Origin: Naegleria gruberi
Taxonomy: Eukaryota
NCBI GenBank assembly: GCA_000004985.1
Contig: GG738864.1
Reading direction: 5' to 3' (one strand)
Length of the DNA: 64,000 bases
A model generated the notes under the pieces. That model was given only the letters and a program-made list of their open reading frames with translations, searched no databases and was not told the origin of the DNA. Shown piece by piece: positions 16,056 through 40,416 of this stretch (positions within the stretch are counted from its first letter, which is position 1; the number at the start of each line of letters is the position of its first letter). Both the position numbers and the translations under genes were made by a program.

Positions 16056-16174
16056 GGCTACGGCCATATCACGATGAATGCACCTCATCCCGTCCGATTT
16101 GAGAAGTTAAGCATCGTCGAGCCACATCAGTACTGAGGTTGGAGACAACTTGGGAACCTGTGGTGCTGTAGTCT
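16056..16174 (+). rRNA. 5S ribosomal RNA, solo copy
   Basis: GGCTACGGCCATATCAC...CCCGTCCGATTTGAGAAGTTAAGC...GTACTGAGGTTGGAGACAACTTGGGAACCTGTGGTGCTGTAGTC matches the eukaryotic 5S consensus, including box A/C regions. The terminal helix pairs 5' GGCTACGG with 3' CTGTAGTC. Followed by TTTTTT. Confidence 0.8.
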
Positions 16175-17393: not shown

Positions 17394-17466
17394 GCCGACA
17401 TAGCTCAGTTGGGAGAGCGTAAGACTGAAGATCTTAAGGTCCCTGGTTCGATCCCTGGTGTCGGCA
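17394..17466 (+). tRNA. tRNA-Phe (anticodon GAA)
   Basis: GCCGACATAGCTCAGTTGGGAGAGCGTAAGACTGAAGATCTTAAGGTCCCTGGTTCGATCCCTGGTGTCGGCA is near-identical to metazoan tRNA-Phe. Has a 7-bp acceptor stem, D-loop AGCTCAGTTGGGAGAGC and T-loop GGTTCGATCC. Followed by a TTTTT run at about 17470-17474. Confidence 0.9.
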
Positions 17467-17864: not shown

Positions 17865-18881
17865 TCAAATAACACCAATATCAAGTGATGTTAATTGTTT
17901 CATTTCACTTATGAATTTGGATCCTTCTACACCAATTTGATTGTAAGTAATGTCAAGTGATGTTAATTGTTTCATTTCACTTATGAATTTGGCTCCTTCT
18001 ACACCAATTTGATTGCCAGTAATATTAAGTGTTAATTGTTTCATTTCACTTATAAATTTGGATCCTTCTACACCAATTTGATTGTAACCAATATTAAGTG
18101 ATGTTAATTGTTTCATTTCACTTATATATTTGGATCCCTCTACACCAATCCCATTATAATATATATCAAGTGATGTTAATTGTTTCATTTCACTTATGTA
18201 TTTGGCTCCTTCTACACCAATTTGATTGTAACCAATATTAAGTGATGTTAATTGTTTCATTTCACTTATATATTTGGTTCCCTCTACACCAATTCCATTA
18301 TAATATATATTAAGTGATGTTAACTGTTTCATTTCACTTATGTATTTGGATCCTTCTACACCAATTTGATTGTAAGTAATGTCAAGTGATGTTAATTGTT
18401 TCATTTCACTTATGTATTTGGCTCCTTCTACACCAATTTGATTATCAGAAATATAAAGTGATGTTAATTGTTTCATTTCACTTATGAATTTAACTTTATC
18501 TGGAGAGTTACGCAACCTATAACAAAACTTAACATTTACAATACTATTCTTGAATTGGCTTTTCATAAACAATTCAATTCTATTTTCTGTAAATTGTTTT
18601 TTAAATTGAATAACAAGTCTTGAACGTTCCCGGATCACATTAAAGAATTGTTTTGAAATTAAAGAACAATTATTCAAAATAAACCACGAATCATCAATCA
18701 TGGAAATTATGTCAAAACAAACATCATCTGAAAATATATCTTGTTGGAGTTTCACAACTTTTTTTGCTTTCTCTTTCATCGAATAATTATCATTAATCAA
18801 TAGCTCCTCCGAAATTAATTGATTTGCAAAATCTTGGCTGATTCGTTTGCTCATTTTTTTATTACTAATAGTTTTCTTCAT
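17865..18881 (-). CDS. F-box-like plus leucine-rich-repeat protein with about 8 near-identical 24-aa repeats
   Basis: 338 aa. Repeats EMKQLTSL(D/N)I(T/G/Y)YNQIGVEG(A/S)KYIS. N-terminus DVCFDIISMIDDSWFILNNCSLIS is F-box-like. Stop is TGA, with an in-frame TAA about 26 codons later. Confidence 0.6.
   Translation of the reverse strand: MKKTISNKKMSKRISQDFANQLISEELLINDNYSMKEKAKKVVKLQQDIFSDDVCFDIISMIDDSWFILNNCSLISKQFFNVIRERSRLVIQFKKQFTENRIELFMKSQFKNSIVNVKFCYRLRNSPDKVKFISEMKQLTSLYISDNQIGVEGAKYISEMKQLTSLDITYNQIGVEGSKYISEMKQLTSLNIYYNGIGVEGTKYISEMKQLTSLNIGYNQIGVEGAKYISEMKQLTSLDIYYNGIGVEGSKYISEMKQLTSLNIGYNQIGVEGSKFISEMKQLTLNITGNQIGVEGAKFISEMKQLTSLDITYNQIGVEGSKFISEMKQLTSLDIGVI
17880..18480. repeat. Tandem 72-bp nucleotide repeats encoding the LRR units (8 or more copies, over 90% identical)
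   Basis: Recurring TTGTTTCATTTCACTTAT(G/A)(A/T)ATTTGG(A/C)TCC(T/C)TCTACACCAAT(T/C)(T/C)(G/C)ATT units are visible directly in the sequence. Confidence 0.6.
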
Positions 18882-19072: not shown

Positions 19073-19345
19073 TCACTTTAAAATATAAATACTTGTACAG
19101 TAAGTTAATATTGACAAGTTGCTAGATAACCAATCTGAACCTTCGAATAAACCATTGCCATTTATTTCACTACATGGTTGGATGTATCAATCTTGTTTGA
19201 TCGAATTTAAGTGCAATATCTTTGCAAGGTCTGTAACTTTGGCGGCCCTTGGTAAATCTTGCTTATTAGCCCAAATTAAAAATTTGGCATTTGATGGATC
19301 TTCCATAACTTTACAGGATGAGGTGCATTCATCGTGATATGACTG
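19073..19345 (-). CDS. ARF/ARL-family small GTPase, C-terminal coding segment; in-frame TGA at the invariant Trp codon. Upstream exons not resolved.
   Basis: Minus-strand translation ...AKFLIWANKQDLPRAAKVTDLAKILHLNSIKQD-[TGA]-YIQPCSEINGNGLFEGSDWLSSNL aligns with ARF1 [57 protein letters not shown]. The TGA (plus coordinates 19187-19189) sits exactly where W of NWYIQ is expected. Absent from the ORF track because TGA splits it into pieces shorter than 60 aa. A possible MG... start lies near 19580. Confidence 0.4.
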
Positions 19346-19714
19346 TAGCCCTCACTTAATCGAATTCTTAATATAAAAACAATAATATATCAAATCCTAA
19401 GAAAATAAACTTAATTAAATTATGAAAATTACAATGTATTAATTATTTGGTCTTTTATCAAATATTGGAACTTTTCAATTTGTGGTCAGTCTAACCTTGA
19501 AGTTCGTTCATTCTGTTCCTTTTTCTTTATTATTCCAAAGAGATGGTTAATGAAAGACCAAATGAATAATATCCAAAACCCATGGCTACTCCTTCTTTGG
19601 AAACTCGTTAATCATATTTCTTTCCAAAATTATTAATTGACTGAGCAAGTACAAGTTTTGAAATCTATAAATTGTGGAAAGTAAAAAATTAAAAACAGAA
19701 TACAAAGAAAACAA

Positions 19715-20114
19715 AATGAAAAGATTTATTTCAATTCTATTAATTGCATTGACGTTAACAGTTCTTGCTCTTTCATTCACATCAGGAGTTAGTGCCACCA
19801 CTGAAGAACAAGCATCAACTCTCTCCTTGTATATTAGAAAGTATGGAAATAAGAAGAGAAATCTCAAGAAATACAGATTAAAGAAGAGAAAGAACAACAG
19901 AAAGCTCAACAAGTACATTGATACCTATGGAAGAAAGAGAAGAGGATCAAAGAGATTAGGAAAGAGGAGAATTATCAGAAAGAAGGTTGATGTTTATGGA
20001 AAGAAGAGAAGATTGAATAAGAAGAGAAGAATTGATACCTATAGAAAGAAGAATAGAAAGAATAAAAGAGGAGGAAAGAGAAATAAGAAGGTTGATATCT
20101 ATAAGCGTAAATAG
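19715..20114 (+). CDS. Small secreted polybasic repeat protein (signal peptide plus K/R-rich repeats)
   Basis: MKRFISILLIALTLTVLALSFTSGVSA signal peptide, then repeats of the type (I/V)D(T/V)YG(R/K)KRR...KKRR. The track ORF begins upstream with a non-ATG start; first ATG at about 19715. Confidence 0.4.
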
Positions 20115-29082: not shown

Positions 29083-30435
29083 ATGGCAGACGATCTATTA
29101 ATGAGTTTTATGTCTATCACAGACGAAAACAACGTTGAAACTGCTCAACATTACTTGGAAGCAGCTGGATTTGATTTGGAGACTGCTGTAGAATTATTCT
29201 TCTCTAATCAACCTGCAAGTAAATCCAATTCAAGTGCTACTACTACTACAAGTAACAAGCCTACAATACCCTCCGATTATGAAGATATTAGATCACCTAT
29301 TCCGCAACAAGCCTCCAGACTGTATGACTCATTTCAAGGAAATGATTATTCCTATGATAATTCTCAATCCTATTCTGTACCATCTTTTGTAACTTCAAAT
29401 CAATACAACAATAGAGCAAACCAACAATTCCAATCATCAAGATTAACAAAACACGGTGATGAATTTTCGGAAATGTTTAAAAAGCCAGATATTGTATTTA
29501 AGGGAAGTTTTGATGCTGCCAAACAAGAGGCTGAAACATCAGGAAGATGGCTTATTGTAGAAATTCAAAAGGATGATATTTTTGACTGTCACAGAATGAA
29601 TAGAGATACTTGGAATCACGAAGTTGTGAAAACAATTGTGGATACATTCTTTGTTCTTTGGCAAGCTGATGATGGAACTAATCAGGCTGAATTATTTAAA
29701 ACAAGATATCGTATTCGTTCCTATCCTTTCGTTTGTATTATTGACCCAAGAACTGGAGAAAATATGAAGACTTGGGAAGGTAAATATATCGATGCCAGCA
29801 CAATGGTAGATTCTCTTCAAAACTTTGCCGATAGTCACTCACTTATGGATCACCTTCCTTCACCATCTCCAAATACTTTACATACTCCAAATCCATTCGA
29901 TAATATTCCAGTTCAACACCTTCCTTCAACAACGGCAACAACAACAACTAGTCACCATACTGATATGTCAACAGGTGATGAAACAGAGGAAGAAATGATT
30001 AGAGCTGCTATTGAGGCTTCACTCCAAGAATCTAATGCCATGCAGGACGATGACGTGCAAATTTTAGATAGTTTCCCAATTGCTCAACCAACAACAGCCA
30101 CTAATACTATATCGACACCAGTTGTTCAAGAACCACCAAAACCTCAAGAAACACCTGACAAGCAAGTTAATGTTTCCGATTTTGTCGTTGAACAAGGAGA
30201 TACAACCAGAATTCAAGTTAAATTACCAGACGGAAAGAAGGAAGTTATTAAGATTTTGAAGAGTGCTCCATTGGCAGCTGTTTATGCTGTCTGTAGACAA
30301 AAATTAGGAGACAGTGTACCATCATTTACCATTACTTATTTTGACAAGACTCAAAAGACTTTGGAAAATACCTTAGAAAAAACTTTAGGAGGAGAAGGAA
30401 TTTTAGGAGCTGCTTTATCAGTTGTTCCTGAATAA
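29083..30435 (+). CDS. UBA-UAS-UIM-UBX adaptor (UBXD7/Ubx5-like p97 cofactor)
   Basis: 450 aa. N-terminal UBA-like region (FMSITDENNVETAQHYLEAAGFDLETAVELFF). Thioredoxin-like UAS (GRWLIVEIQKDDIFDCHRMNRDTW). UIM (EEEMIRAAIEASLQES). C-terminal UBX (TRIQVKLPDGKKEVIKILKSAPLAAVYAV...). Confidence 0.7.
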   Translation: MADDLLMSFMSITDENNVETAQHYLEAAGFDLETAVELFFSNQPASKSNSSATTTTSNKPTIPSDYEDIRSPIPQQASRLYDSFQGNDYSYDNSQSYSVPSFVTSNQYNNRANQQFQSSRLTKHGDEFSEMFKKPDIVFKGSFDAAKQEAETSGRWLIVEIQKDDIFDCHRMNRDTWNHEVVKTIVDTFFVLWQADDGTNQAELFKTRYRIRSYPFVCIIDPRTGENMKTWEGKYIDASTMVDSLQNFADSHSLMDHLPSPSPNTLHTPNPFDNIPVQHLPSTTATTTTSHHTDMSTGDETEEEMIRAAIEASLQESNAMQDDDVQILDSFPIAQPTTATNTISTPVVQEPPKPQETPDKQVNVSDFVVEQGDTTRIQVKLPDGKKEVIKILKSAPLAAVYAVCRQKLGDSVPSFTITYFDKTQKTLENTLEKTLGGEGILGAALSVVPE

Positions 30436-30570
30436 ATGACAAATCCATTACTTTAAAGAAAGTGTATAGCGTAAATACCATTTAAATCATCAAGAAGCAA
30501 AAAACAAATTAGCTCACGATCGTAGGTGACAATAATAAACAAGTAAAATGTCAAAAAACTAAACACAAAT

Positions 30571-30928
30571 TTATTGGTGCTTGGCGAGCAATTCCTTGAC
30601 GAGAGCAACGTATTGTTCCATGGCATCTTCCTTGGTCATACCTTCCTTACCCTTCCAGGCGTCCCTATTTTAATATTGTTGTTATTAATAAAATATCATT
30701 TTAAAACAACTTACCATTTAGCTCTATCCTTCATGTAGAAGATAGATGGTTGATCAGTGTTGCAATCACCAACAGTAGCTTGCTTGTACTATAAAATTAT
30801 TAGTTGATGACATGATGAATATTTAAACATACCAAAGAGTACAACAAAAGGAGATCATCATTGGTTGGTCCAGAGGTCAACTTCTTGATGTCTTCAGCAG
30901 CTTGAGTGAAATCTTCTTGCAAACCCAT
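30571..30928 (-). CDS. Acyl-CoA-binding protein (ACBP/DBI), 3 exons
   Basis: Spliced: MGLQEDFTQAAEDIKKLTSGPTNDDLLLLYSL | YKQATVGDCNTDQPSIFYMKDRAKW | DAWKGKEGMTKEDAMEQYVALVKELLAKHQ. Canonical ACBP motifs YKQATVGD and KWDAW. GTATGT and GTAAGT donors. Confidence 0.7.
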
Positions 30929-31185
30929 TTTTATGTGTTGTTGATTTTTTGTTTTTTGAAAATTTATTTTCCTTCTTCCGAAGGCCATTTAATTCGGCCC
31001 AAGACAAGTCATCAAATTTTTAGTCCGTTGTTGATTGTCGACGTTGTAAAGTTGCTTTCAGTTTATTGGTTTGAATTATCAATTAACAGCTTTGGCACGT
31101 CAAGAGTTGAGGATGGCCATTAATTGCATGAAAAGTTTCTTAATTGTTAAATTGTCTAATTTGCAATATTTTCAAATATTAAAAA

Positions 31186-34062
31186 ATGTCAAAGTATGAT
31201 CCATACGTTGTCGATGACAATGAAAGTAGTTGTGAGGAAGTTGATGATGAAGAAAATGAAGATGATGATGATGATGACGATGAGGACATTAATACATTAG
31301 AAACAAAACCAGCCTTGGGATCCTTATTTTCTAGTGTTGTTGAGATGGGTGGAGGTAATTTTACTTGTGGAGGTGCATTGCAAAGTAATTTTGGCTTACC
31401 TGGATTGGAAATTATCATTCCGAAGTCATCATCGGATCAATCATCAAGTAATGTTTCTTCATCAAGTGAACAATTTGAATATAAACCAATTGCCTTACCA
31501 ATTGTTTCAAAAGAACAAGCTAATGAATTAATTTCTCAATGCTCTAAAGCTCCTTTTGGAAAAGGAGAAGAAACAATTTATGATGATAAGGTTAGAAATT
31601 CATGGCAATTGTCACCTTCACAATTTAGAATTTCTAATAAGAATTGGAATGTTATGTTAAATGAATTAATGAATGGTGAATTGAAACGTGGATTGGGAAT
31701 TAATGAAAATGTTAAAATTAAGTGTTCACTATACAAATTATTATTATATGAGGAAGGTGGACATTTTGAATTTCACAGAGATACTGAAAAGGAAGATCAA
31801 ATGTTTGCTACTTTAGTGATTCAACTTCCATCAGTTTATAAAGGAGGTAATATTATTGTAAAACATTGATCTAATGAGGAAGTTTATGATTTATCAAACG
31901 AATCATCATATACTCCATTCTATTTCAGTTTCTATTGTGATTGTAAACACAAAGTAGACGTAGTTACAAGTGGTTATAGAACTTGCTTGATTTATAATGT
32001 CTGTTATGTTTCCGGAAGTAAGCCAATCATTACAGATAATACCTCACTTGTTACAACATTTAATGAGATTGTTAATAATTGGAGTCTTTCAACCCCAATA
32101 CTGTGCTATCTACTTGGCCATAAATATTCAAAAGCAGGTCTAAGCTTTGATTGTCTAAAGGGTAGTGATACAAAGATATTACAATTAATCAGACAATACA
32201 ATGCCAAACACTCAGAACAAGGTATTGAAGTGTTTCTAGCAATGATGACGAAAACAGAGAGTGGGTATGGAGATCCATATAATATTGAGTGGGAAGAGAC
32301 TTCTTACAGCATTACTCATATGATTGATGAGAGTGGTCATATTCATTCAAACACCAATAACTTGGATTTGGACGAAAGTGATTTCTTTCCAGAAGATGCT
32401 CTAGAAGAATTAGAACAATCTGGTGAAGAAGTAAGTTCTATCTGTACATTAATTTATAACTCAGTTCGTTGTCATCTCTAGATTGAAGAACATACAGGTA
32501 ATGAAGGAGCTACTGCTTCAAGATGGTACAAATCAGCATGCTTAATCATTTATCCAAAGAGATTCAAATATTTAATGGCATTGAAGTTTGGTGGTTCAAG
32601 TGCTTATAAAGGACTCCAGGATTTATGGGAAGCTTATCTGAAAGATGCTTCATTAAGAAATCAACTCGTTCAATATTTGAAGAGTTTTATAGAAAAAACG
32701 TATAGTCGTTATATGGTTGGCAATTTTAGTATTGGTAATTACATTTCCGAATTAAGAGAATTGAGTTTGGCAAAATTATTACTTTCTCAATATAAATGTT
32801 CGAAAGAAGATGTTATTCAAATGGTATCAGCATTTGGAATTGACCCACTCAGAAACGAAATCATTGGATACTATAAGAACATGGATTTTAATTCCCTTGC
32901 TGAATTTTTGGATGTATTTCCTGATAATAATTTGGCTCAATTATTAATTCCTACTCTTCTAACCAATAATAGATACTCTTATAGAAGTAATTCATCAACA
33001 GATTATGAGACTGCATTAACCGCTTGCTCAAAGTATAATATTACCTTGGACTCTGAAACAAAAAAGAAAATTCTATCCGATAGTTCATATAACACTACTC
33101 AACTCTATCAATTGGGATGCAAACTAAAAGATATTTATTGTTTGATGGAAGTATTGAAAAGATCATTCTCTATCAGCTTGAATTCAAACAGATTCTATTT
33201 AAATTCTAATACTGTAACACCTCCTACCACATTACCTGTTAAAATAATTGTAAATTGTATTCAAATTATTGGACTTGATAATTGTAGAGCCACATTAGAA
33301 CAATTAATTTCAGAATTTGTGAATAGAAATGGAATTTCATCATCTCTAGATAGTATTCAATTATTTAGTGATAATACAGATAATATTCACGTATCAGATT
33401 TCATTTCAAAGTCAATTGTTAAGAATATTAAGGCAAGAAATGATTTAAAATCTCAAAACATTGATATTTATGAAAAGATATTTATTCAATTCTACAAGTG
33501 TGGAGCAATTGATGAGATGAGTGATCTTGCTAAATTATTAATTTCTAATCCTAATTCTCAATATATTCACTCAACAATTAATCCACTTGTTTTGAAAATT
33601 TCAAGAGCCAATATTAATGTTATCAATAGTGAACCCCTTCAATTTTTAATTAGAAAATGTATTCAATACTATGATTCAGTAATTACAAACCAATCAAATG
33701 TACCAACACCTAATAATTGGGTCATTAATGCTACTTTGGGTTGTACATGTGGTAATTGTAAATCATGTAATGAATTCCTCAAATCAGCCACACAAGTTAC
33801 TCATTCGATAAAGGCATCAGCCAGCGTTAGAGATCATGTCGAGAGGGAGTCACGTAAAGTTACAATTGATTTGCAATATGATACACTCAGACAAGGTTCT
33901 CCACACACTCTCGTATTGACAAAGATTAGAAAATCACAAGAATTGAAACAGAGAGCATTACAAGAGTCCATTACTTCCAGAAATAATTTAACACCACTGG
34001 TGAGGAAAGCAGGAGCATCCACAAATGATCCACCTTCCAAGAAGCTTAAAAGTGAACATTAA
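31186..34062 (+). CDS. 2OG-Fe(II) oxygenase (P4H-like) domain protein with about 550-aa C-terminal extension; in-frame TGA at 31867-31869; 51-nt intron 32431-32481
   Basis: HFEFHRD (HxD), GGNIIVKH, then TGA, then in the same frame SNEEVYDLSNESSYTPFYFSFYCDCKHKVDVVTSGYRTCLIYNV (second His plus the GxR DSBH strands). The track shows it as two same-frame ORFs, 31186-31869 and 31987-32481. A GTAAGT...CTCTAG segment whose last triplet is TAG joins in frame to ORF 32575-34062, which carries a C-terminal CTCGNCKSCNEF Cys cluster. Confidence 0.5.
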
Positions 34063-34656
34063 TAAAGATGATCTATTACGCCACAGAATATTTATTGTTC
34101 ATCCATTATGTTAAACTTGGTATTCCTTAATAATAATGTTGATGATTTTCTTTTTCTACGTATGTAATTTTCCCATTGTCATTTCATTTGTAATAGTACT
34201 ATCATCTCTCCTGTTGTTCAACATTTGATTTCCATCAATTAAATAAAAGAATTTATCATTAATTTCGGAATGAGAAGACAGTGTTGATTAGTGATTGTCT
34301 ATTGATGTTGAGATTGAATTGATTAATTCCATCATTTAATTGTCTAATTGTCTGCGATTAAAAACATTGCAAGAGATGAAAATATTTCCAATTTCAGGAA
34401 ATCAAGTGTTTGTCTGTTGTTTTTGTAACAAACTGATTCGGAAGGATTTACACTCTCACTTTGTTTACTAATCACCATGTTGAAGAGAGTCATTTTGGTT
34501 TGCAAGCTTCATTGTTGTACATCCTTGTTGTGGTGAGTGATGAAAATTTTTTCCAAGTCTATTGCTTGCCATTTTTCGCTGAAGAAATTCTTTGTTGTAA
34601 AATAATAGTTAACCAAGAATAAAAAACTTGTTGAAAAAAAATAAGTCGAAAGCACA

Positions 34657-35550
34657 ATGGTTTGTATTCATCTGCTGAATTTTATCTTTGCTTACACTTT
34701 GCTGTTTTAATATTAACACTAACCTCCTCTTCATACCCTATTGTTAATGTTGTTCTTCAAATTTAAACTATAATAGCCTCCAAAGAATCCACAAGAAAAG
34801 AAGGCCAAGAAAGTCGTCAAGACCTCTGGTAAGAAGATCCAAAAGGGTGACTTCAAGAATTTATTGGCTCCTAGACCAAAGGATATCGGTATTGGTAGAG
34901 ATTTGGGCGCTAAGATGAACTTGACTAGATTCGTCAAATGGCCAGTTTATGTCCGTCTCCAAAGACAAAAGAGAATTCTCTTGAAGAGAGTCAAGATTCC
35001 ACCAGCAATCAACCAATTCAGAATTGTTGCTGATAAGCCTTTGGCTCACTCTGTTGTCCAATTCCTTGCTAAATACAAGCCAGAAGATGAACAACAAAAG
35101 AAGGAAAGACTCAGACAAGCTGCTAAGGATAAGGTTGAAGGTAAGGCTGCTACTCCAAAGAAGAGTGAATCCTCCCTCATCCACGGTATTAACGAAGTTG
35201 TCAAGGCTGTTGAAAGAAAGCAAGCTTCATTGGTCGTTATTGCTCACGATGTTGAACCAATCGAACTCGTTTTGTTCCTCCCTGCTTTGTGTAAGAAGCT
35301 CGATATCCCATACGTCATTGTTAAGTCCAAGTCCAGATTGGGTCAATTGGTCCACATGAAGAACTGTGCTGCTGTTGCTTTGACTGAAGTCAAGAAGGAA
35401 GATAGAGATCAATTCGCCAAGATTGTTGAAGCCGTCAGAGGTGCTTTCGTTGACAGATTCAGAACTGTCAATACCAAGTGGGGTGGTGGTCAATTGAGCA
35501 AGAGATCAATCATCGAACAAAAGAACAGAATCAAGAAGCTCAAACAATAA
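34657..35550 (+). CDS. RPL7A: 60S ribosomal protein L7a (eL8); exon 1 is the ATG alone, then a 117-nt intron (34660-34776)
   Basis: ATG|GTTTGT...TAATAG|CCT CCA AAG... gives MPPKNPQEKKAKKVVKTSGKK...LLAPRPKDIGIGRDLGAKMNLTRFVKWPVYVRLQRQKRILLKRVKIPPAINQF...LVVIAHDVEPIELVLFLPALCKK..., near-identical in motifs to eL8. Confidence 0.8.
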
Positions 35551-35648
35551 ATTCCAACATAAAAACCATAAATTTAAAATTAAAAACATTTTACTTTTTT
35601 ATTTACAAAATAGACTTGCCCTTTTACTTTGGTTTTGCAGAGCTCTCC

Positions 35649-37178
35649 TTAAGGTAAGAACATGGATAAGAATTCATCCATATTTTCATCACGTTCTTGT
35701 TGCTTTGTTTCTTCGTCTTCATCTTGGAGAAATACGTTTTCAAAGGATCCAATCATGGAATCTTCTTGGTTTGTATCAATCATTGAAATCTCATCTAGTG
35801 GTGTTTGTTGCATTGGCACAGTATTGTGAGAAGGTTCTTGTTGGTAAGATTCAGAGATGAGAAAAGATGAAAAATCATAACTTGGAATATCACTGTTTGA
35901 GGAATGGGAAGAGACAGGAGTTCTTGAGACTGGTGAATAACTGTAGCTTGAAGATGCAGTTTCCCTTATTCTCATCTTGTTTGCCTTTTGTTGAGGAATT
36001 TTGATTGGTTGATGGTTACTAGCATATCGTTGTTTGAATTGTTGATAGTTAAAGGATTGAGAAAGTTGACTCAAATCTACACTATTCATATTTACAACTG
36101 ATTGAGTTTGCTGGGAACTGTTTGGTTCATGAACATTACTATTAGCATTGACTGCATTCAAACTTCCACCTCTTGGTGTTGACACTGATGCTCTTCTAAT
36201 ACTGGATCTTCTCTGTCTATGAACTGAATCTGAAGTACCACTTTGAGTATTGCTTCCTCCAACATTGAACATTGAAGTATTGCCATTGCTTCCTTCCAAT
36301 TCTAACAACTTGGTAAAGAAATCAAATTCAGCACTTGGTTGACCTCCAAATGATTGAACTCTTTGCAAATTATTGTGAGCATTATTGGGTGGAGGACTAA
36401 TCATTCCACTATTGTTACTAGTGTATGAGCTTCTTGGAGTTGATGAATTAGAATTTGAATTCAAATCCATCATCATTGAATCAGTCATTCCTCCATAACT
36501 GAAATTATTTGGATATGAGGATGAGATTCTTACAACCTTTGTTGGAGTATAGATACTATCATTACTATAACTATGATACATACTTTGAGCTGATGTATCA
36601 ATAAAGAGTGGATGAGAATCATCACCATTCAATTCTGATGTTGCGGTTGTTGCTGTTGTAACCGAATTGAGATTTTGTTGTTGAGGATTAGTATTATTAC
36701 TATGATACAATTGATTCATCGAATCAGAATGATGCAAACCTGAAACATTAAAGGTAGTTTGCAAGAGAGAAATACCAGATATTGTGTTTCTTCTTTTATG
36801 TGAATAATTGCTATTGGCACTCGAAGAATCATGATGAATGGCAGCAGCATCATATTGAGAGGTGGAGGAGGAGAGGAAATCATCATCGGTTGGAGTTACA
36901 ACTGAATGAGAGGATGAGTTCTTACGTTTCTTCCTATCATTCTTATCAGTCTTGAAGAAAAAGTAGTTGGCTTGAAATTCGGTATTGCTTCTGAATTGCT
37001 TGTTGACTTTGAGCAGTTTATCTCCTTTCAATTGAGTCTTGAGTTTCACCTCATCTGTTAGATCGACAATTGAGAATTTGCCATTACCATTCGAATCATT
37101 CGTTGATGCAGTTGATATTGTTGTGGCAGATGCAATTCCATTATTGTTGGTATTCAATGATGAAGAGGCTTGTTGCAT
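35649..37178 (-). CDS. Ser/Asn/Gln/Thr-rich low-complexity protein of unknown function
   Basis: 509 aa, strongly biased composition with homopolymeric N/S/Q/T tracts. Short structured N-terminal region KFSIVDLTDEVKLKTQLKGDKLLKV. TAA stop. Confidence 0.4.
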   Translation of the reverse strand: MQQASSSLNTNNNGIASATTISTASTNDSNGNGKFSIVDLTDEVKLKTQLKGDKLLKVNKQFRSNTEFQANYFFFKTDKNDRKKRKNSSSHSVVTPTDDDFLSSSTSQYDAAAIHHDSSSANSNYSHKRRNTISGISLLQTTFNVSGLHHSDSMNQLYHSNNTNPQQQNLNSVTTATTATSELNGDDSHPLFIDTSAQSMYHSYSNDSIYTPTKVVRISSSYPNNFSYGGMTDSMMMDLNSNSNSSTPRSSYTSNNSGMISPPPNNAHNNLQRVQSFGGQPSAEFDFFTKLLELEGSNGNTSMFNVGGSNTQSGTSDSVHRQRRSSIRRASVSTPRGGSLNAVNANSNVHEPNSSQQTQSVVNMNSVDLSQLSQSFNYQQFKQRYASNHQPIKIPQQKANKMRIRETASSSYSYSPVSRTPVSSHSSNSDIPSYDFSSFLISESYQQEPSHNTVPMQQTPLDEISMIDTNQEDSMIGSFENVFLQDEDEETKQQERDENMDEFLSMFLP

Positions 37179-37309
37179 TCTTTTTTGTCAGTGTTTTGAT
37201 GAATATTGTTGGTGGAGCTCTCTCTCGTTCCAAGTTTTCATTCTTCCTTCCATAATTGAGGAGCAACAATTAAAACATGTCATCAATTGCTTTGAATTGT
37301 TGCAGACTA

Positions 37310-38105
37310 GTGAAAAATTCATTTCATGCATGCAAAAACCTTTTTTGTAATTTGGAGGACAATATCGACATCAATGCACAATCTGATCCTCTCACATAAC
37401 CAGCCAATCCTTCTTCTGTGCTCGTTGGTTGTTGTTATTGTTCAATAGTATAAAAAAGGAATGTTTGAAATAGTCCCAATTGTCTCTATTTAATTGTAAT
37501 GTTCATTGCGTGGTATTACAATGAATCTTCGTGTGAGATTTCTAATATTCTGTTCGATTCCTAAAAAATTCAGCAGCTGTTTGATATTAAATCAGGAAAA
37601 ACAGGATTTTTTTGACCCAGTAGCCAATTTTTCTAATAGCAATCGAATGAATATTGACAAATCTTACCATGATTGTTTAACTATATTTTTATCACTATTC
37701 ATACGCTGTCTAAAAATCTTCTGAATAAAATCAAAAAAACAAGCATTAGAAAAGATTAAGCAAATTGCTCCAACATTTGCATGTTTGTGTAATAAAGGAA
37801 GTGACCTGACAGATAGTGCAAATTATTGGTGCTTAACTCAAGGAGAATTGGCTTCAAGCAGACTTGAATCAACAATAAAAATCACTTGCCAACATGTTTC
37901 CCCCTCAGTCAATACAACAATTTTCATTTCATGCAAAAACCTTTTATGTAATTTGGAGAATAATATTGTAGATAGGTTGTCCAATCTGATCCACAATCTA
38001 ATCCACTCATTTATCCATGTTAACCTTTTCTGTAAGGATTTGTAATAGTATTTAAAAGGAAATTTGAAATAGTCCCAATTTTCTCTAATCTATTGTAATA
38101 TTAAA
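37310..38105. repeat. Two copies of an about 190-bp direct repeat (about 37310-37500 and about 37915-38105)
   Basis: Shared blocks TTCATTTCATGCA(T)GCAAAAACCTTTT(T/A)TGTAATTTGGAG(G/A)A and TTTGAAATAGTCCCAATT(G/T)TCTCTA...ATTGTAAT appear in the same order in both copies. Confidence 0.45.
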
Positions 38106-38116
38106 TGATGGTGAAA

Positions 38117-39247
38117 TCACTTTGAATTTTCTGAAGATACTGTTGTTGGAGTACTGTTTTTGGCTGCATTCTTAGATGAATCGTCAAATTTAGTTCTAAG
38201 ATTTTTGTAAGCTCTTGCTGTCTTTTCTTCATTACTGACATAATTTTGTCCGACTCCAGATCCACCATCATTACCAATTTTAGTACCATCTCGTGAGTAA
38301 ACTCTGTATCTATTGTTTTGAACACCTCTAACTCTATTCTCCTCGATTTCTTTCATTTTAGAGGTTTGAGCTTCTCTTCTCACAAGAGAGGTCATTCCTT
38401 TGAAAACTAAATAAATTGCAAAAACGTAAGCCACGTAAGCCATCAATTTCATACCGAGAGCAATGGCTTTAGTTGGAGTCATTCCGTTCATCTTAATGTC
38501 GTAAACAAAACTGAAAATGACTGGTGATTTCAACAAGACTTTTTTAACAAGCTCATGTTGGTCTTTGAAATGAGTTTGAATTATAGTTTCTCTTTGTTTC
38601 ATTTCTTTTTCTTGTCTTCTCTCTGAATTATACTTATTCATAATACCAAGGAAAGTGGTATGTTCTGAATCAGCAAACCATGTCTTTTCACCCTTCTTAT
38701 ATTTTTCAATTCTTGTCAGGAAATCATCATCTGAAAATGGGAATACATCGAATGGATTGTAACGAGATCCACTACTAAATGGATCCTTTCCCCAAAATCC
38801 TCTTGGATCTGATTGTCCTGTTCCAAATGGTGCACTATTTGGATTGTTTGGATTTTGAACATTTCCTTGTTTAATTTGAGAATAGGCTGCATTAATTTCA
38901 GCCATCTTATCTTTAGCATCCTCTGTCTTGTTAAGATCTGGGTGAAATTTCTTACTCAACTTGATATAAGCCTTTCTGACAACATCTTCACTTGCTCCAA
39001 ATTGAACTCCTAAAACTTCATATGGATTTTTCGTGGCATTTTGAAAAAAGGATTGTGTATGAAAGGAACGACTTGTTCCGATATTTAATAAATCCAAATA
39101 ATTATTATTGCGTTTTAATAAATTACTATTATTGCTACTATTAATGTTCCAAAGAAATAAATTATTCAGTGATGATGACAAACGTAAATTGGAGGAGAAG
39201 GTGGCGAAAGTTTGTCTTCGAGAGTATCGGGAAATCATTCGAGACAT
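38117..39247 (-). CDS. J-domain (DnaJ) membrane protein with predicted mitochondrial presequence
   Basis: [34 protein letters not shown] contains the HPD motif. Two hydrophobic helices ([22 protein letters not shown]). N-terminus [14 protein letters not shown] is R/S-rich. Stop is TGA, followed 9 codons later by TAG. Confidence 0.6.
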
Positions 39248-39554
39248 TTTTTAATTAAAGTACAAGATATTATGTGGATGATGACGACAATATATTGTTG
39301 AACGAATACTTGCAAAAGTACTCATAAATCAGAAATGATTGAGGCATATTCTTATTGTTTTCATCAAGAATTACAACACCTTTGCAGAAGAGTGAGAGTT
39401 TCAAACTTGTGAAGTGGTAAAAATGAAGGGACGAAACTTTGATTGTAAAAACAAAAATCGGTGGTCATCCCAGGAAATTTTTTGAAAAAAAAAGCCCAAA
39501 CGTAAGTAGACCTTTTATTTCGCCCATCTCGTTACACAGACATTTTAATAGAAA

Positions 39555-39803
39555 ATGCAAAACGACGCCGGTGTCCAAGTTGATTACTATCACCCAAGAA
39601 AGTGTACTGCCACTAAGAATTTGATCACTGCTAAGGATCACGCTTCCGTTCAAATCACTGTTGGTTTGGTTGATGAAAACGGTGTTTACACTGGTGAAAA
39701 TGCCACTGTTGCTTTGTGCGGTGATTTGAGAATGAAGGCTAAGTCTGATGGTGCTGTCAACAGACTCATGCTCGAACAAAAGATTATGAAGGATATCCAA
39801 TAA
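39555..39803 (+). CDS. RPS21: 40S ribosomal protein S21 (eS21)
   Basis: MQNDAGVQVDYYHPRKCTATKNLITAKDHASVQITVGLVDENGVYTGE... matches eS21 ([33 protein letters not shown]...). 82 aa, single exon, TAA stop. Confidence 0.85.
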   Translation: MQNDAGVQVDYYHPRKCTATKNLITAKDHASVQITVGLVDENGVYTGENATVALCGDLRMKAKSDGAVNRLMLEQKIMKDIQ

Positions 39804-40416
39804 ATTCTCAACTAAAAAACTATTTAAAATATTAAATTTACCTTTACTTTTTCTAATTACAATAGTAGAATGACATTTGAAAAAGCATTAGATGATATTT
39901 CAACATCATTCGTTTTTGCTTATTATTTTCAAAAACAATGTCTCTAATTGGCCCAAAGGATTTATCGGACCAATGCAAAATTCATATCAGCAAGGATTAT
40001 AACTTGCAGATTGTTAGCATTGTCATTTGCTTTCTGAGTATTATAAGTAGTGTTTTTGTATTTGCAGGAGTGTTTTTGTATAGGAAGGAGACCAAATCGC
40101 CTCGGATGAACATTTTAGCGTATGTATTAATCTAATTCTTCTCATCAACAACTTTATCTGTTTTACAATTCTTGTTAAATTTCATTATTTCACCAATGTT
40201 CTCTTTCAACAACAATATAACATCATTACGATAGTATAATCAACATTTTCGGATTCATCTATTGTTTATGTATTGAAATTGAATCAATAATTATCACATT
40301 GTGTAGGTTTTCGCAAAATGTAATAATACTAATTAATTAATCAACATGATTGTACATCATCAACTTTGTTCCGAATTCAATTCATCAAAAATCATCATCA
40401 AATCTGAAATAATACA

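Follow-up and report, generated by a model that had tools for sequence, protein, structure and literature searches.

Here we describe a two-exon gene of the heterolobosean Naegleria gruberi, strain NEG-M, whose catalytic domain is interrupted by one in-frame TGA, and we argue that this TGA is very probably a lesion in the gene and not a signal in the genetic code. The gene encodes a PHD-like 2-oxoglutarate (2OG)/Fe(II) oxygenase of 941 codons and lies on the plus strand, at 31186-32430 and 32482-34062, of a 64,000-nucleotide stretch of contig GG738864.1 (GenBank assembly GCA_000004985.1), which we call the window. As judged from comparison with related sequences, the TGA is a single G-to-T change private to NEG-M, and no other lesion is seen in the gene. 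The codon is Gly both in a 99%-identical Naegleria sequence and in Willaertia, and therefore the TGA is to be read as a nonsense mutation or a base-call error, not as an altered code. A first-pass annotation, made from the letters of the window alone, had proposed that the TGA might encode Trp, with a second TGA in an ARF-like sequence as a parallel case, and had offered a nonsense lesion as the alternative; it is the alternative that the comparison bears out.

A stop codon between the iron ligands

Translation from the ATG at 31186 would run for 227 codons to the TGA at 31867-31869, after which the same frame stays open to 32430 and, once the two exons are joined, continues into a product of 941 amino acids in which this is the only in-frame TGA. 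The 713 codons that follow the stop are both open and conserved. The stop falls within the catalytic fold and separates the iron ligands from one another: HxD and the GGNIIV strand lie 5' of the TGA, and the distal His (H255) and the Arg that binds 2OG (R265) lie 3' of it in the same frame. This arrangement, which had already been noticed in the first pass, agrees with the coordinates and with a family alignment of 37 sequences, where H197, D199 and R265 are invariant and H255 is nearly so. The residue at the stop is predicted to lie in the turn between the beta strands at 223-226 and 231-234 by an AlphaFold 2 (AF2) model whose mean predicted local distance difference test score (pLDDT) is 79 overall and about 90 in the catalytic region. 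The parts of the gene are as follows.

31186-32430, plus strand: exon 1, with 415 codons for the acidic N-terminus, the catalytic domain (a PHD-like double-stranded beta-helix) and the greater part of the second beta domain
31774-31782, plus strand: HxD iron ligands H197-R-D199 (H197 at 31774-31776, D199 at 31780-31782), read directly from the sequence
31867-31869, plus strand: in-frame TGA, codon 228
31948-31980, plus strand: distal iron-binding His H255 (31948-31950) and 2OG-binding Arg R265 (31978-31980), downstream of the stop
32431-32481, plus strand: intron of 51 nt, GTAAGT...TAG, whose 3'-terminal TAG is in frame
32482-34062, plus strand: exon 2, 526 codons and a TAA (34060-34062), for the remainder of the second beta domain, some 380 amino acids of helical repeats and the C-terminal module
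33712-33999, plus strand: C-terminal module, residues 826-921; Cys cluster C836/C838/C841, followed by R865 and H867 (both invariant) and by a beta-alpha-beta-beta-alpha unit that ends in GSPHTLVLTK

The codon at the stop site can be read in two relatives, in both of which the catalytic-domain frame is uninterrupted. The closer one is a 9401-nt contig (k127_419351) of the ENA metagenome assembly ERZ929261, here called L002, which comes from an environmental Naegleria and was reached through the protein cluster of a neighbouring gene. It is syntenic with window positions 30522-39922 and 98.9% identical to them over 9.4 kb. At position 31867 the window has T where L002 has G, so that the codon there is GGA (Gly), and the exon-1 open reading frame of L002 was called without interruption at 430 amino acids. 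The remaining differences across the gene amount to 9 missense and 5 synonymous changes and one in-frame indel of 3 nt. The more distant relative, Willaertia magna, holds the best homolog (P0001, 935 amino acids), which is 56% identical to the window protein and collinear with all 941 of its residues; across the stop, Willaertia reads GGNIIVKH-G-SSEQIYDL and the window GGNIIVKH-*-SNEEVYDL, with no gap, and the Willaertia codon is GGT (Gly). Apart from the gene, the Willaertia locus showed no synteny with the window, and a scan of JGI metagenomes for related loci gave no matches.

The same alignments bear on the possibility that the two halves are separate genes, or that a small unrecognised intron removes the TGA. 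Nothing speaks for either arrangement except the stop itself. Willaertia aligns residue by residue through the site, which excludes both readings, L002 reads straight across it, and the stop falls inside the catalytic fold; we regard the probability of either as negligible. The earlier view that no intron covers the TGA thus holds, and the prospect raised with it, that an ortholog alignment might split the halves into two genes, came to nothing.

The 51-nt intron between the exons is, on the same kind of evidence, real: its excision restores gap-free collinearity with Willaertia (SGEE/IEEHTGNEG across the junction), it is kept in L002, and it differs from L002 by 2 substitutions in 51 nt, more than the 0.3-0.7% of the exons. 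The first pass had placed this intron correctly and had rightly continued the gene beyond it, into a region which it gave as 495 amino acids; that figure counts from the first Met, and exon 2 encodes 526. The orthologs each have a single intron, at different sites: that of N. gruberi follows SGEE, and that of Willaertia follows TASR, 14 codons further on. In the Willaertia gene (L001) the coding sequence is contiguous at the window's intron site, and its own intron, of 64 nt, occupies nucleotides 1309-1372 of the gene. The differing positions suggest intron sliding or independent gain.

A probable nonsense allele, or a base-call error

The gene does not look like an old pseudogene. Its only premature stop is the TGA, its frame is never shifted, and the divergence of its exons from L002 (0.32% and 0.70%) does not exceed that of the non-genic DNA (0.89%). 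At the missense differences for which Willaertia is informative (S510, T595), it is NEG-M that has the ancestral allele, which argues that there has been no extra decay in NEG-M, although the counts are too small to conclude from. A single nonsense hit would not be exotic either, as 6.3% of the possible single-base changes in the coding sequence are nonsense changes.

We think it probable, though by no means secure, that the T at 31867 is a real NEG-M allele. The mechanism that we propose is a G-to-T transversion at codon 228, which would have turned GGA (Gly) into TGA in a genome that uses the standard code. The resulting allele may be heterozygous, or its fixation may be recent, NEG-M being an axenic strain long kept in culture, with one or more paralogs of the gene; P0007 is such a paralog in N. 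gruberi, and Willaertia has three. Naegleria strains are known to show ploidy variation, heterozygous single-nucleotide polymorphisms and culture-related change (PMC9928731). The product of such an allele would be a protein of 227 amino acids with the HxD motif but neither H255 nor R265, and would therefore be catalytically dead. With the exon junction 561 nt downstream of the stop, the transcript would probably be subject to nonsense-mediated decay.

The competing account is that the 2010 Sanger reference has a base-call or assembly error at this site, that NEG-M really reads GGA, and that the gene is intact; we consider this possible and distinctly the less likely of the two. It has several things in its favour: the difference amounts to one base, the closest relative has G at 31867, the gene outside this base is intact, conserved and indeed pristine, and few stretches of the 9.4-kb comparison are as little diverged as exon 1. 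Yet the coding indels over those 9.4 kb are all multiples of 3, with no frameshift or other sign of error, and the site lies outside any homopolymer or other error-prone context. Window and L002 differ at about 0.6% of sites, and in a finished Sanger consensus the expected errors are rarer than such real strain differences by orders of magnitude.

Several points weigh against a real nonsense allele and should be kept in view. The T at 31867 is read from the assembled reference consensus, in which a base-call error is possible, and the near-identical comparator is a single sequence. There is no further decay in the gene, and the allele, if real, must therefore be very young or heterozygous. Finally, with 14 changes to go by, the ratio of nonsynonymous to synonymous substitution rates (dN/dS) against L002, about 0.5, has too little precision to indicate either constraint or relaxation.

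Genetic code, readthrough and the second TGA

If the TGA were a sense codon, whether through a lineage-wide reassignment of UGA to Trp or Cys or through programmed readthrough at this one site, the enzyme would remain functional. The long conserved frame past the stop is what one would expect in that case, and there is a second TGA in the window that aligns with a conserved Trp of ARF. Almost everything else points the other way, and we hold recoding to be very unlikely. The sister-strain and ancestral codon is Gly, and the TGA is not conserved in close relatives. In the alignment of 36 homologs the column at the TGA holds Asp 12 times, Lys 6, Asn 4, Glu 4, Gly, Gln, Arg and His 2 each, and Ser and Leu once each, with no Trp and no Cys. 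The first-pass reading of the site as Trp (VKHWSNEEV), and with it the thought that orthologs might carry Trp there, is therefore not supported.

Codon usage in the window tells the same story. The 18 long open reading frames comprise 11,642 codons, among which are 74 TGG and no TGA, although a GC content of 33% would favour TGA if it were a sense codon; nearly all of these frames end in TAA. When every TGA in the window was scanned by codon usage, the site at 31867 ranked first, and nowhere else in the window did a search turn up a TGA flanked on each side by believable coding sequence. Eleven further open reading frames bridged by a TGA were inspected by eye, and their extensions were all intron or junk sequence. 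The stop is followed by T (TGA-T) and is thus not of the TGA-C/CUAG type, which is the leaky stop context. The window contains no suppressor tRNA with a UCA anticodon, its sole tRNA being a tRNA-Phe. The standard code is the one used in the annotation of N. gruberi; full-text searches of the literature gave no report of stop-codon reassignment in Heterolobosea, and nothing relevant was found on Naegleria readthrough, in-frame stops or PRJEB11402.

Nuclear reassignments of UGA are known from Blepharisma and Condylostoma and from Blastocrithidia, where it encodes Trp, and from Euplotes, where it encodes Cys, and the likeness to these lineages is plain enough: an in-frame TGA in a conserved domain, with homology that continues in frame. 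In those organisms, however, in-frame TGAs are frequent, stand for one amino acid and are conserved among relatives, whereas here there is one TGA, which aligns with Gly and is missing in the sister strain. A narrower version, in which NEG-M carries only TGA at codon 228 and still makes a full-length functional enzyme by site-specific readthrough, would require a very recent switch from Gly to a read-through stop, and we give it slightly less credence still.

The ARF case loses its force when the sequence around it is read. The ARF-like piece lies on the minus strand at 19115-19303, and its TGA (19187-19189) does align with the conserved Trp of RNWYIQ. By tblastn and six-frame reading, however, the piece comprises only the last 64 residues of the domain (positions 111-173 of the 174 of the Pfam Arf profile), and no P-loop or DVGGQ motif turned up when the 1.1 kb upstream was read in all six frames. 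Searched against a database, the fragment gave no matches. It is a relic of a gene of which only the last third of the Arf domain survives, and a TGG-to-TGA lesion in a relic is uninformative on the code; we have accordingly rejected it both as support for recoding and as a parallel to the oxygenase. Upstream of the relic there is a plus-strand open reading frame (19674-20114) for a Lys/Arg-rich repeat protein with a signal peptide.

Selenocysteine would be the remaining way to read through a TGA, and N. gruberi does have the selenocysteine machinery. A search of 31000-34800 for a selenocysteine insertion sequence (SECIS) gave no match even at E up to 10, and no Rfam family reached its threshold in the gene or its 3' flank. 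The homologs have no Cys in the TGA column, the sister strain has Gly, and the residue is modelled in a surface hairpin turn and not at a redox site. Lacking both a SECIS and a Cys column, selenocysteine was dropped from consideration as having next to no likelihood.

The oxygenase family and the NEG-M annotation

The assignment to the prolyl 4-hydroxylase-like (P4H-like) oxygenases, made in the first pass, is right. The HxD...H facial triad, the basic residue for the C5-carboxylate of 2OG (R265) and the double-stranded beta-helix fold are all present, as they are in prolyl 4-hydroxylases of the PHD/PKHD type, such as Pseudomonas putida PPHD (4iw3), human PHD2/EGLN1, Dictyostelium PhyA, PiuC and Tpa1/OGFOD1. 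The sole Pfam match is PF13640, for which the window protein scores 21.7 bits and the Willaertia protein 22.1, below the cut-off of 27; bacterial and N. gruberi members of the family (P0018, P0065 and P0007) pass it with 28.6-33.3 bits. NCBIfam gave only a weak, sub-threshold match of the PiuC kind, and a sequence-profile search of the PDB gave nothing significant. The window protein is 12-16% identical to the PHD/PKHD-type enzymes and differs from them in about 650 extra residues, which in the AF2 model are predicted to form a second beta domain (about residues 300-440), then some 380 residues of helical repeats, and then a C-terminal module.

This architecture places the protein in an uncharacterised family annotated as 2OG-Fe(II) oxygenase, with members of 730-1030 amino acids that match it end to end, including a C-terminal block of the form W..CxCxxC..FL...RxH...GSPxTLVxTK. 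The window copy differs in its premature stop; like the other heterolobosean members it also has an N-terminal extension of acidic character and a basic tail, KKLK, which the bacterial members lack. The search returned 811 matches at E <= 1e-3. Most of the family (homologs P0001-P0113) is bacterial, from Planctomycetota, cyanobacteria, alphaproteobacteria and Entotheonella, and it occurs in Heterolobosea and in Bradysia fungus gnats as well, with several paralogs each in Willaertia and Naegleria; the patchy distribution among eukaryotes suggests horizontal transfer.

The first pass had also pointed to the C-terminal Cys cluster, which is there, and had called it unusual in such an oxygenase, which it is not. 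The invariant C838, C841, R865 and H867 and the GSPxTL strand are present in every bacterial and eukaryotic homolog inspected, and the architecture is therefore typical of the family. The module resembles the single-stranded nucleic-acid-binding modules of the R3H, Jag-KhpB and Alba types in its IF3-C-like beta-alpha-beta-beta-alpha fold. The likeness has its limits: structural comparison gives Z < 8 at 8-21% identity, the Arg-x3-His motif of R3H is replaced by R865-x-H867, and a CxCxxC cluster precedes the fold; nucleic-acid binding is putative. We infer that enzymes of this family may hydroxylate either nucleic acid or some protein that belongs to an RNA-containing assembly, and that the C-terminal module would be the tether.

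The oxygenase gene appears to be missing from the GenBank annotation of NEG-M. Seven open reading frames of the window are identical to NEG-M GenBank proteins (EFC45170, 45172, 45264, 45269, 45270, 45273 and 45274), all from one scaffold of 441,990 nt. On the plus strand the accessions run directly from EFC45172 (UBX, 29083-30435) to EFC45173 (RPL7a), with no gene model between them. The homology search returned no identical N. gruberi oxygenase protein, exact look-ups with the pieces of the gene were without a match, and no NCBI protein clustered with the intact open reading frames of L002. Absence from the word-indexed protein search is weak evidence, since that search missed two ENA proteins of about 99% identity (P0134 and P0135) that were present in the collection. 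The TGA stop is probably the reason why the gene was left out.

Some other features of the window may be recorded here. A 5S rRNA gene (16056-16174, plus strand, 105 bits) and the tRNA-Phe(GAA) gene (17394-17466, plus strand) lie among the protein-coding genes. On the minus strand at 17865-18881 there is a leucine-rich-repeat gene made of near-identical units of 24 amino acids (KYISEMKQLTSLxIxYNQIGVEGx), one of them shortened, whose open reading frame ends in TGA. Between the oxygenase gene and RPL7a, at 34531-34615, weak sub-threshold matches that resemble C/D-box snoRNAs occur on both strands (SNORD111, 25.8 bits, E 0.2; snR47, 26 bits).

Our result is mainly a negative one, in that it removes a false lead for a code change in Heterolobosea: of the two TGA cases in the window, one would be a recent nonsense lesion and the other the old relic of a gene. 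It also has a practical side, because pangenome or orthology tables built on the NEG-M annotation would score the gene as absent. If the allele is real, NEG-M would be a natural knockout, or a heterozygote, for one member of a widespread and uncharacterised family that combines a PHD-like hydroxylase with helical repeats and a Cys-cluster/R3H-like module.
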